IMG/VR virus record: IMGVR_UViG_2880412407_000008
Source of the DNA: a virus
Lineage: Duplodnaviria > Heunggongvirae > Uroviricota > Caudoviricetes
Reading direction: 5' to 3' (one strand)
DNA: 62,354 bases
In this document: positions 1 to 6,000 of the stretch, piece by piece
Numbering within the stretch: position 1 is the first letter of the stretch
Layout: every line of letters starts with the position of its first letter
Program-made: the position numbers

Positions 1-3000
1 ATGAACAGGACCAGTCCCCATTATTGTCGCCGCTCAGTACTTTCCTTATTGATATCTGCCTTGATATATGCCCCGCCTGGGATGACGGCCTTCACTCCTG
101 ATGTTATTGGTGTGGTAAACGATGAGACTGTAGATGGCAGCCAAAGAGTAGATGAACGAGGTACAACAAATAACACTCATATTATCAACCATGGCCAGCA
201 GAATGTTCATGGCGGGGTATCTAATGGAAGTCTTATTGAATCGGGTGGATATCAAGATGTAGGAAGTCATAACAATTTTGTGGGGCAGGCTAATAATACA
301 ACCATTAACGGGGGCAGACAGTCAATTCATGACGGAGGGATTTCCACAGGTACAATAATTGAGAGTGGCAATCAGGACGTTTATAAAGGGGGTATCAGCA
401 ATGGAACGACAATTAAGGGTGGTAATTCACACATAAGTGGGGGGACTGCAAATGGAACAATCATTGATGGTGGAGGCCAGTCAGTATCAACTCAGGGGCA
501 TGTTGACGGTACAACGATAAATAAGTCTGGTTATCAGGACATCATGCAAGGAAGTCTGGCGACGAACACAACCATAAATGGTGGACGACAGTATGTTGAA
601 CAGAGCACAGTAGAAACAACCACCATTAAAAATGGCGGTGAGCAAAGAGTATATGAAAGCCGTGCGCTGGACACGACGATTGAAGGCGGAACTCAGTCTC
701 TGAATAGTAAGTCAACGGCAAAAATTACGCAGATCTATTCTGGTGGTATGCAAATTGTTGATTACACCAGCACCTCGGATGTTATTGAAGTTTATTCCGG
801 TGGCGTGCTTGATGTTAGTGGTGGTATGGCAACAAATGTTACCCAGCACGATGGTGCAATTTTAAAAACAAACACTAACGGTACGACGGTGAGCGGTACG
901 AATAGTGAAGGGGCATTCTCCATCCACAATCACGTTGCAACAATGTGTTGCTGGAAAACGGTGGTCATTTAGACATAAACGCATATGGTTCGGCAAACAA
1001 GACGATTATTAAAGATAAAGGAACAATGTCAGTTTTAACGAATGCTAAAGCTGATGCGACCCGAATAGATAACGGCGGGGTAATGGATGTTACCGGAAAC
1101 GCGACCAATACCATAATCAATGGTGGTACACAGAATATTAATAATCATGGTATTGCCACGGGTACCAATATCAACGGCGGAACGCAAAATATCAAGAGCG
1201 GCGGGAAAGCTGACACGACAATTATATCCTCCGGGAGCCGGCAGGTTGTTGAGAAAGATGGTACGGCAACTGGCAGCAATATTAGCGCCGGAGGCTCGCT
1301 GATTGTCTATACCGGTGGTATTGCACATGGGGTTAACCAGGAGACGGGCAGTGCTTTAGTTGCCAACACGGGCGCAGGGACTGATATTGAAGGATACAAC
1401 AAGCTCTCTCACTTCACTATTACCGGAGGGGAGGCTAATTATGTTGTGCTGGAAAATACCGGCGAACTGACGGTAGTGGCTAAAACCTCGGCGAAAAATA
1501 CTACCGTTGATGCTGGCGGTAAGCTGATTGTCCAGAAGGAGGCTAAAACAGATACCACCAGACTTAATAATGGTGGCGTTCTGGAGGTTCAGGACGGTGG
1601 TGAGGCTAAGCATGTTGAGCAACAATCCGGCGGCGCATTAATTGCTTCCACAACTTCCGGAACCCTTATCGAAGGAACCAACAGTTATGGTGATGCTTTC
1701 TACATCAGGAATTCAGAAGCTAAAAATGTAGTGCTGGAAAACGCTGGCTCATTAACAGTCGTCACTGGTTCCCGGGCAGTTGATACGATTATTAATGCCA
1801 ACGGCAAAATGGATGTTTATGGAAAAGATGTTGGCACTGTACTTAATAGTGCTGGCACCCAAACAATATATGCCAGTGCCACTTCTGATAAAGCAAATAT
1901 CAAAGGTGGCAAGCAAACGGTATATGGTTTAGCCACTGAGGCAAATATTGAAAGTGGTGAACAAATTGTTGATGGTGGGTCAACTGACAAAACGCACATC
2001 AATGGCGGCACACAAACCGTTCAGAATTATGGTAAGGCGATCAATACCGATATCGTCTCTGGCCTACAACAAATTATGGCAAACGGGATAGCGGAAGGTT
2101 CCATTATTAATGGGGGTTCACAGGTAGTTAATGAGGGCGGTCTGGCTGAAAACTCGGTGCTTAATGACGGCGGCACACTCGATGTGCGGGAGAAAGGCAG
2201 CGCAACGGGGATACAGCAGAGTAGCCAGGGCGCTTTGGTTGCAACCACCAGGGCGACGCGGGTCACAGGAACACGCGCGGATGGCGTCGCGTTCAGCATC
2301 GAGCAGGGTGCGGCGAACAATATCCTGCTGGCAAATGGCGGCGTGTTAACCGTGGAGTCAGACACCTCTTCTGACAAAACACAGGTCAATACGGGCGGAC
2401 GGGAGATCGTCAAAACAAAAGCCACTGCGACAGGCACGACGCTCACCGGCGGCGAACAAATCGTCGAGGGGGTGGCGAATGAGACAACGATTAACGACGG
2501 CGGAATACAAACAGTTTCAGCTAACGGAGAGGCAATAAAAACAAAGATCAATGAAGGCGGTACGCTGACAGTTAACGATAATGGCAAAGCGACAGATATC
2601 GTCCAGAACAGCGGTGCCGCTCTCCAGACGAGCACGGCTAACGGTATTGAAATCAGCGGTACTCACCAGTACGGCACTTTTTCCATTTCCGGCAATTTAG
2701 CGACCAATATGTTGCTGGAAAATGGCGGTAATTTATTGGTATTAGCAGGTACCGAAGCTCGCGACTCCACGGTTGGCAGCGGTGGAGCCGCCAACGGCAG
2801 TTATCGCAGCAACGGGCTGGGCGGTCACATTGAAACCGGGATGCGATTTACCGATGGTAACTGGAACCTGACGCCGTATGCATCGTTAACGGGGGTTCAC
2901 CGCTGATAACCCTGAATATCATTTATCCAATGGCATGGAATCGAAATCAGTCGATACCCGCAGTTTATATCGTGAACTGGGTGCAACGCTGAGTTACAAC

Positions 3001-6000
3001 ATGCGTCTGGGGAACGGTATGGAAGTTGAGCCGTGGCTGAAGGCGGCTGTGCGCAAAGAATTTGTCGATGATAACCGGGTGAAAGTGAATAGTGACGGTA
3101 ATTTCGTCAATGATTTGTCGGGCAGACGTGGAATATACCAGGCAGGTATTAAAGCCTCATTCAGCAGTACGTTAAGCGGGCATCTTGGGGTGGGGTATAG
3201 CCATGGTGCCGGTGTGGAATCCCCGTGGAACGGGGTAGCTGGTGTGAACTGGTCGTTCTGACCATCAACGAAAAAGCCCACATCTGTGGGCTTTCATGTC
3301 ACCAGGAGCCGCGGCTCCTTTGCGTATCCTTTTATGTCTCTTCACCGTCTGGTCGGTGTCCTGCTGATACTGCTAACTTCCTGTTTTTATTGGTGTTGTC
3401 CTTATACCGTCCAATCATGATTGGTGCTGGGGTCCCTGTAACTAGATATCTATTTTGTTGAATTTTCTAGATAACTGTTGTTTCTGACTTTACCTTTGGT
3501 TCAATAAAGGAACCATAAATCGTAACGGCATGAACCCCTGAAAATAGTCCGTTGGCAAACTGTATCAAAAAATATCAAACCTCTTGGTTCAACTTCCTGA
3601 TGTCATCTGAACTCATTTCATTGGTCTTCCTTTAACATGTCGATTACGTTAGCTACATACATAAAGCCTAACGCCTGTTGGAGATTGTTATGAAAAACTG
3701 GTCAGCTGAGCATACGAGAGAGGTGAAGAAGTGGCTGAATATAGATACATATCGAGGATTCGAAGAGCTTCCGCTTATACACCTCTACCATGAATTGCTG
3801 GCAAGGACATTGTTCTTCAAACCATATCATGAAGAATTTGAAGCAGAAGCGGTCAGACTTTACATTGACCGGATTTTCAGCGGAAAACCGTTTCTTATTA
3901 CAGAACAACATCTTGGATACCTCACAAGAGAAGATACCCTTTACCAGCCACCTCACTTCTATCTGACAACAACTGAAAGACTGGCGCAACTCAGTATTGT
4001 GGGGCTACGAAATTCACTTTTCTTTTGGGAGGGAGGGGATGAGTACTCGGTTAACCGTGAATTCCTTGAAAGCCCTGTATCAGAGTCCCTACCTCGCCTG
4101 TTCAGAGATACTGTCATGGTCGAAATCGACTTGGCGAATGGAACTGACGAGGAAATAGCTGAATCCCTGAAAGCCGCACTACCTCAGTGGCGTAAGGTCA
4201 GAGGTATTGAGGCTGACACTACTGACTCGATCCGCTTTGGTTATGGAACGATTAAGAAAATCATCAACTACAGACTTATACCCCTTATTGATATCTTGGT
4301 ATGGTCAAACTTGCACCAAGTTCGTGTATCCGAAGACCGCCTTTCCCGGCTCCTGTACACGGATGAAGATGATGAAGAACAAACCCGCCTGAACCACCAA
4401 ATCAGGGATACGGACAGACCCCTTGCTCTGAAGGCCGCGAGTATACCGTTCATCCGTCAGTTTCATCTGTTCATCAACAAAAACGACCACCTAAAAAAGA
4501 TCAGAGTTTCAGACGTGATGAAAATCGCTGATTCTGACTAAGACCAACCTCCATTAGCTCTGGCGTTCTCGGCTTCGGTCTTTTTCCTGCTGATTCATTT
4601 ATATAGTAATTCCCATCGCAACTGAAATGAGGAATAAAATATGAATCAGCACAATACTCGCCTTATTCGTTTACCAGAGGTTCTAAATCGAACCGGTTAT
4701 GGTAAAGCGTGGATCTATCATCTAATCAGCAAAGGCTGTTTCCCATCACCAGTCAAAATTGGATCTCGTGCAGTTGCTTTCATTGAAAGTGAAGTAGACG
4801 AATGGATTCAATTAACTATCGAAAATTCAAGAAAGCACGTTGCCTGATTAAATTAACAAAGGCCTTTCTTTGGAATATAAAAAACTGCAATTTACCAATA
4901 ATGTAAAAAATAAATGAATAAAAGGTATGTATATTTTACAGTAAAATTTACAGATTAAAGTTAACTTAGTATTTCTAAGGCTCAGAGGTTAACTGGTAAG
5001 TATTAGGGAAACATAAATAAAACTAGATTCACCTTATATAAGGTGCGAAAATTTTCACTGATACATTATTGATTTCAAACAAAAATAATAAAATTAAAAG
5101 ATATTATTTTTGCAAAAAATAATATCATTGCATATTAATATATATCACCTATATAGAAATGTAAAATTTAAAGGAGATGATATGAGAAAATACAGCGTTA
5201 ATTCTTTTGTTTTTGAAAGTGGAGAAAGGTTTTGCCATGTGATAGATAAAATATCAGGAGAACCTTTATATTATCCAAACCTCTATATAACTACACAGGT
5301 CAGGAACAGATCAAAGTCGATCAACACGATGGAGGCTATTGGTGGAAATCTGGCATTACTATATCGATTTTTTTCTCTCAGGGGAATAGATATAAGAGAG
5401 AGAATAGCTACGTTGCAATTTCTGGATCTTAATGAAATTGATGATTTGGCTGATTTCGCTTCAAAAAACTTCAAAGACAAAAGAACAACATTTTTGCATG
5501 AGCGTAGTGTTGTTAAAGAACCGACAAAATATTTCAGGTTGACCGTTATTATTAATTATCTTGAATGGCTGTGTGAAGTTCACACAATCGGAACTAAGAG
5601 TAAAGATAATCAAAAAATAATGGACAGTTTTATTGATAAGCTAAAAATTAAAAGACCATCAAATGAAAATGGATATAAAAATCAAATCCATGAGAAAACA
5701 TTAAGCAGAGAACAGCTTGATATTTTATTTGAGATAGTCAGACCTGGCTCTGAACTTAATCCTTTTGCTGATGAAGTTCAGTCAAGAAACCGATTGATTA
5801 TATTACTGCTTTTTTCTTTTGGGATCAGGGCAGGAGAGTTGTTAAATCTTCGCATCAGGGATATCGATTTTTCTTCAGGAATGATTGTAATAAAAAGACG
5901 ACCCAATGATAAGTTTGATCCAAGAGTTAATCAACCACTTGTGAAGACTTGTGAGAGAATGTTTTCTGTGGGCAATACATTAATGGCTGAGTTATTTAAT

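Follow-up and report, generated by a model that had tools for sequence, protein, structure and literature searches.

The viral stretch of DNA analyzed here (IMG/VR record IMGVR_UViG_2880412407_000008, Caudoviricetes; 62,354 nucleotides (nt), hereafter the window) opens at positions 1-3261 with an autotransporter adhesin gene that does not read through in one frame. Does this gene record true decay, or is it an intact gene broken by sequencing errors? Its interruptions had appeared to sit only at homopolymer runs, and similar ones disrupt lom and a tail-fibre gene farther along, which led the initial annotation to suspect one kind of artefact behind them all. Comparison with complete Escherichia coli genomes makes it, in our judgment, very probable that ypjA/ehaD, the gene for a type Va (AIDA-I/Ag43-like) adhesin, stands at 1-3261 as a genuine pseudogene acquired by vertical descent, and that the lom and tail-fibre frameshifts form a separate class. 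We regard the ypjA lesions as real and heritable because they are shared with independently sequenced genomes, including Illumina-based hybrid assemblies.

Three lesions in ypjA and their distribution

The gene at 1-3261 is ypjA/ehaD, coding for an AIDA-type autotransporter adhesin, and comes from E. coli O121:H19 or a strain very closely related to it. By blastn it aligns with K-12 ypjA, 4,581 nt long when intact, at 96-97% nucleotide identity in two blocks starting at K-12 nt 1, and its retained parts share ~96% protein identity with K-12 YpjA. In NCTC9064, W2-5, E67 and K-12, ypjA lies between a recombinase remnant with ypjCB upstream and ssrA-smpB downstream; sequence identity to ypjA/ehaD together with the conserved position beside ssrA marks the window copy as the orthologue.

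Along the plus strand the gene's frame changes twice, from frame 1 (1-939) to frame 3 (940-2895) and back to frame 1 (2896-3261). No single open reading frame (ORF) runs from signal peptide to barrel; three consecutive ones stand in its place, at 1-972 (frame 1), 945-2906 (frame 3) and 2935-3261 (frame 1). The first segment (1-939) carries the first AIDA repeats (Pfam AIDA, PF16168, matched in ORF 1-972) behind an N-terminus, MNRTSPHYCRRSVLSLLISALIYAPPGMTA, that looks like a signal peptide and resembles the N-terminus of K-12 YpjA. The second (940-2895) holds the rest of the AIDA-repeat passenger, with nine repeat matches in ORF 945-2906 (E = 1e-123), and the start of a barrel remnant. The third (2896-3261), which includes the 108-amino-acid (aa) ORF at 2935-3261, is the C-terminal remnant of the beta-barrel according to Pfam PF03797, TIGR01414 and annotation. 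Left unrepaired, frame 1 contains 25 stop codons within 1-3261, the last being the gene's own; the first premature one, at 970-972, ends a 323-aa N-terminal fragment.

Aligned with the intact K-12 gene, the window copy differs in length at exactly three places. The first is a 1-nt deletion (936-943, plus strand), in which a lone G has been lost between 939 and 940, changing GCAGACAATG to GCA-ACAATG and shifting the frame. GCAGACAATG, with its G, is read in K-12, W2-5, 33-6 and S43, and the G is absent from the window, 16-9255, FWSEC0006 and NCTC9064. An A missing from an A-run near 950 had been proposed instead; the lost base is a single G flanked by two A's, and its loss is not a homopolymer change. 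The second difference is a 1,320-bp deletion that removes 440 codons in frame, with its junction at 2776-2788. The third is the insertion of one G into the run at 2891-2895, G5 against the G4 of intact alleles, which returns the reading to frame 1 and bears out the surplus G previously placed near 2895.

Alignment to intact homologues thus recovers two single-base changes as anticipated and adds a large deletion to them. The claim that the adhesin is broken only at homopolymer runs does not survive, since the largest lesion is the in-frame deletion and the first indel lies outside any run. Adding a base behind 939 and taking one G out of 2891-2895 does yield one ORF of 1,086 codons with zero internal stops. 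To that extent the two-base repair suggested earlier, giving a continuous passenger and barrel, holds, with its first site moved from about 950 to 939/940. We also considered whether the -1 and +1 changes form a compensating pair. They do restore the overall frame, but they lie 1,955 nt apart with many frame-1 stops between them, and we rejected the idea.

How far these lesions extend was read from the 5,426 complete E. coli genomes in RefSeq. Deletion alleles were counted with a 111-nt query spanning the junction, for which an end-to-end match was required; a full-length search is unfit for this count, as it joins pieces up to 2,150 nt apart and lets intact alleles score full coverage. The junction is present in 322 genomes, and the remaining ones match one side of the query only. 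A 75-nt context containing G5 is matched exactly in 318, and the intact alleles that we read have G4. A synthetic query combining the junction with G4 found no perfect match among the 5,426 genomes; the deletion and the extra G are therefore fully linked. The lost G is rarer. Its 75-nt context is exact in ten genomes, namely eight O121 genomes, NCTC9064 and the O103 strain ML775. Over 1-3300 the eight complete O121(:H19) genomes, 16-9255 and FWSEC0006 among them, are 100% identical to the window; NCTC9064 and ML775 score slightly lower, NCTC9064 by a single substitution at 1677.

Both single-base lesions thus recur base for base in ten complete genomes from different laboratories and platforms. 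The assembly of 16-9255 is an Illumina MiSeq and Nanopore hybrid made with Unicycler, and that of FWSEC0006 combines 103x Illumina with MinION reads and five rounds of Pilon polishing; a reference quoted by one published paper gives the CDC O121 strains as PacBio assemblies. Because the lesions are shared with independent assemblies, Illumina hybrids included, true decay is the side of the original question that is upheld, and sequencing error in ypjA is the side that is not. NCTC9064 lacks the 58-kb insertion that adjoins ypjA in the window and is a distinct strain that has the same ypjA allele by inheritance.

Other relatives carry further hits. Among the matches to 1-3300, five have IS3 insertions inside the same deletion allele, and in S43 ypjA ends after 1,425 nt and is followed by unrelated genes, including an integrase. 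These hits fit continuing decay at ypjA. The O121 allele and the deletion allele of W2-5 differ at 48 positions, clustered at 312-936 and 1845-2353, a pattern that points to a mosaic passenger and to recombination after or around the deletion. Position 936 is the last of the 35 substitutions in the first cluster, which places the frameshift at the edge of a recombinant patch, possibly by coincidence. The G-to-T substitution at 936 and the loss of the G after 939 together create a perfect 8-nt palindrome, GTTGCAAC (window 933-944). A quasi-palindrome (template-switch) origin of the lost G was considered and set aside, GTTGCAAC being too short for a hairpin; we mention it as a remark only.

The truncated translocator and what it could still do

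The deletion removes K-12 YpjA residues ~927-1366, and its junction (2776-2788, plus strand), where two blastn segments overlap by 13 nt, falls at an imperfect short repeat, GCAnnGGTGGnGC, of which GCA is exact. A search for a closer intact ancestor returned E67 and 33-6, both intact alleles and only 94.5-95.3% identical in the passenger. As no closer intact allele was found, the microhomology at the deletion ends can be stated no more exactly than GCA with an imperfect 14-nt repeat. On K-12 YpjA, Pfam locates the Pertactin domain at residues 1057-1179 and the barrel at 1265-1504, with a proline-rich stretch (1179-1240) between them. Set against these positions, the deletion takes out the end of the repeat passenger, the pertactin/autochaperone-type domain, the linker with its proline-rich and helical stretches, and roughly 100 residues at the start of the barrel.

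Repairing both frameshifts does not bring these parts back. The repaired protein retains its AIDA-repeat passenger (PF16168 in 10 stretches, E = 4e-143, with TIGR04415 repeats as well), and PF03212, found at 1057-1179 of K-12 YpjA, is absent from it. Besides the autochaperone domain and linker it is missing ~40% of the beta-barrel. Only 160-163 barrel residues remain at the C-terminus, and NCBIfam matches them to positions 268-432 of the 432 in TIGR01414, which is short of a complete 12-strand barrel. The 108-aa ORF at 2935-3261 covers PF03797 profile positions 164-254 of 255, against 1-254 in K-12. A barrel of about 170 aa had been noted as a possible real truncation; the residue count and the junction in 322 genomes bear that out. 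Judged from the domain layout, the 1,320-bp deletion is the most damaging of the three lesions, and a product with both frameshifts undone could not form a translocator.

The 1,320-bp deletion plausibly arose by illegitimate recombination or slippage between short repeats encoding similar Gly-rich motifs; it joined the passenger to a point midway along the beta-barrel domain without a change of frame. One G was added to the G4 run of the remaining barrel segment, a change linked to the deletion in every genome found. The lone G after nt 939 was lost later, a change seen only in the group of O121:H19, NCTC9064 and O103 ML775, and its loss truncates translation at codon 324. With its barrel gone, the gene may then have drifted and gathered later lesions. 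The predicted outcome is that the surface adhesin is not made, as the protein neither forms the 12-strand barrel nor reaches it, and that at most a 323-aa fragment bearing the putative signal peptide is produced. The 108-aa ORF carries the RefSeq/PGAP accession WP_000444409.1, 'autotransporter outer membrane beta-barrel domain-containing protein'; it shows no signal peptide evident by eye, and is a C-terminal fragment of the ypjA pseudogene and probably not a gene product.

Several points weigh against an inherited pseudogene or limit what it can claim. The eight O121 genomes are a single clone, ST655, and are independent as sequencing experiments, not as evolutionary events. For the window's own assembly, the claim rests on identity with independent assemblies. 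Pfam reported no barrel in the repaired full-length protein, although it did so for the 108-aa ORF alone and NCBIfam found one. The deletion and the added G, being fully linked, may have arisen in either order.

Within this reading, the loss of YpjA could have been selected rather than neutral, for instance through immune or phage evasion or through reduced aggregation after shedding an exposed self-associating adhesin. The allele with the deletion and G5 persists in strains isolated from many hosts, amounting to ~6% of the complete E. coli genomes, and the O121:H19 group has an extra inactivating hit. We nevertheless consider selection improbable; the data show inheritance and further decay only, and do not separate neutral drift from selection.

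A pseudogene may also keep some function, here through the 323-aa N-terminal fragment or the 108-aa C-terminal ORF. ORF 1-972 does retain the native start and putative signal peptide, PGAP gives ORF 2935-3261 a protein accession, and the deletion allele persists in 322 genomes. Yet the 108-aa ORF, with the last third or so of the PF03797 profile and no signal-peptide-like N-terminus by eye, cannot form a barrel, the 323-aa fragment is limited to the ten-genome group, and the allele keeps gaining lesions (the lost G, the IS3 insertions) in the pattern of neutral decay. We therefore hold residual function to be very unlikely.

The suspicion that opened this analysis, that the single-base lesions arose in sequencing or assembly from a chemistry prone to homopolymer errors and that the real gene is one ORF, fares worse still. 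One of the lesions does sit in a G-run, the window's assembly seems to under-call G/C runs at five places elsewhere, and one of these variants, the G7 at 29289 described below, recurs in nine other assemblies. However, hybrid assemblies built with Illumina reads are among the ten complete genomes that share the two ypjA lesions, 318 genomes carry G5 and G4 turned up solely in alleles lacking the deletion, and the loss of the lone G changes no run length. Even if both indels were errors, the repaired ORF would lack 440 codons, including part of the barrel. The artefact explanation for ypjA is effectively refuted.

A slipped-strand phase-variation switch or programmed frameshift site at the G-run, leaving the gene switchable, is highly improbable: homopolymeric G tracts govern some surface adhesins in other bacteria and the run length does differ between alleles, but known contingency tracts are far longer than 4-5 nt, the length here (four or five G) is allele-fixed rather than varying among close relatives, with G5 throughout the deletion alleles found and G4 confined to alleles that lack the deletion, and the deletion, joined in this lineage by the upstream frameshift, inactivates the gene at any run length.

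Run contractions, island and prophage in the rest of the window

The same comparison with near-identical genomes gives a different result for the other frameshifts. The window is collinear with FWSEC0006 across all 62,354 nt and differs from it in the copy number of a GCCAGA repeat at 13332, in one substitution at 47460 and in five single-base deletions. All five are contractions of G or C runs in the window: G8 to G7 at 29289, in the region of an HNH endonuclease remnant; C4 to C3 at 38083, between gp17 and the major tail gene; G6 to G5 at 50055, in lom (ORF 49577-50179); and G5 to G4 at 51007 and G4 to G3 at 51132, both in the tail-fibre gene (ORF 50234-51145). Those at 29289, 38083, 50055 and 51007 are seen against 16-9255 as well, and both reference genomes have an intact lom and an intact tail-fibre gene. 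The single-base run changes reported earlier in these two genes are thus present, at 50055, 51007 and 51132 relative to close relatives.

Not one of the 5,426 genomes has the window's lom or tail-fibre variants at the 13,278 and 5,179 places, respectively, where these contexts match. One unrelated O157 genome shares the C3 variant at 38083. Nine other assemblies carry the G7 variant at 29289, among them two O121 genomes that have it at the same locus; six of the nine have CDC-style strain names and one a USDA-style name. This recurrence suggests either a recurrent long-read under-call or a truly unstable tract. Errors that run in one direction, fall only in G/C runs and are private to one assembly are typical of an unpolished long-read consensus. 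Because the lom and tail-fibre changes are private, limited to G/C runs and one-directional, we judge that they are probably consensus errors of the window's assembly. The doubt cast on the window's pseudogene calls was therefore well placed for lom and the tail-fibre gene and misplaced for ypjA, and the two sets of lesions are not one phenomenon, the latter being shared with polished genomes and the former private to this assembly.

Reference assemblies carry local errors too. In 16-9255 an IS3-family transposase (14402-14572; window 14480-14653) is annotated as frameshifted and has four single bases fewer than the window. Judging from the alignment, FWSEC0006 has these four bases too, and its copy of the gene is intact, with a programmed frameshift.

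Directly after the ypjA stop, at 3275-3292, lies an inverted repeat, AGCCCAC-atct-GTGGGCT, flanked 5' by an A-run. It was read from the sequence, and a simple terminator scan did not list it. The repeat looks like a terminator, possibly a bidirectional one that would be shared with ssrA in island-free genomes.

Relative to NCTC9064, the window carries a 57.9-kb insertion (3427-61294) at the 3' end of ssrA (transfer-messenger RNA at 61295-61657, minus strand). Within this block lie an integrase island and, in its second part, a lambdoid prophage. Annotation of the block's first part in near-identical O121:H19 genomes lists a DUF6387 protein, a helix-turn-helix (HTH) regulator, two tyrosine recombinases and IS600/IS3 copies; for the prophage it lists sodC and, as type III effector genes, nleL, espN and espK. 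A hypothetical island gene contains, at 13271-13466, a perfect hexamer tandem repeat of 32.7 GCCAGA copies, whose number varies among O121:H19 genomes (+24 nt in FWSEC0006 and -78 nt in 16-9255, relative to the window). A second tandem repeat, of 162 nt in 3.3 copies with 97% matches, lies at 35589-36121 inside the prophage portal gene. That gene is annotated as frameshifted by RefSeq in both 16-9255 and FWSEC0006; unlike the call for lom, this pseudogene call is common to the polished genomes.

Significance and comparison with known systems

The pseudogene status of this ypjA allele is already known. RefSeq labels it in genomes of identical sequence as 'ypjA, adhesin-like autotransporter YpjA/EhaD; frameshifted; incomplete' or as a frameshifted 'AIDA repeat-containing protein'. 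What follows is practical. The gene should be annotated as a pseudogene in O121:H19 and related strains, and adhesiome presence/absence surveys that score ypjA as virulence-associated should treat a BLAST-positive ypjA in these lineages as non-functional. Conversely, the lom and tail-fibre pseudogene calls in the window's assembly are not to be trusted without read support. With near-identical, Illumina-polished genomes as comparators, real pseudogenes can quickly be told from artefacts.

YpjA/EhaD is a type Va autotransporter adhesin of the Ag43/AIDA-I group, whose members are associated with biofilms. Compared with YpjA of K-12 (b2647) and EhaD of O157:H7, the window copy occupies the same locus, between ypjCB with the recombinase remnant and ssrA, and shares with them the AIDA repeats and the C-terminal end of the barrel, behind a similar putative signal peptide. 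By contrast, it lacks K-12 residues ~927-1366, has a -1 and a +1 frameshift, and could encode no functional autotransporter. Its nearest counterpart is the deletion allele of the 322 genomes, as in W2-5, with which it shares an identical junction, the G5 run and the 108-aa C-terminal ORF, and from which it differs by the additional loss of the G after 939 and the 48 positions described above. PGAP annotates the W2-5-type allele as 'incomplete; missing C-terminus' together with WP_000444409.1. The third comparison is with homopolymer under-calling by long reads. The five G/C contractions elsewhere in the window, which break lom and the tail-fibre gene, fit that pattern, whereas the ypjA lesions differ from it in being shared with polished genomes and, in one case, in lying outside any run.

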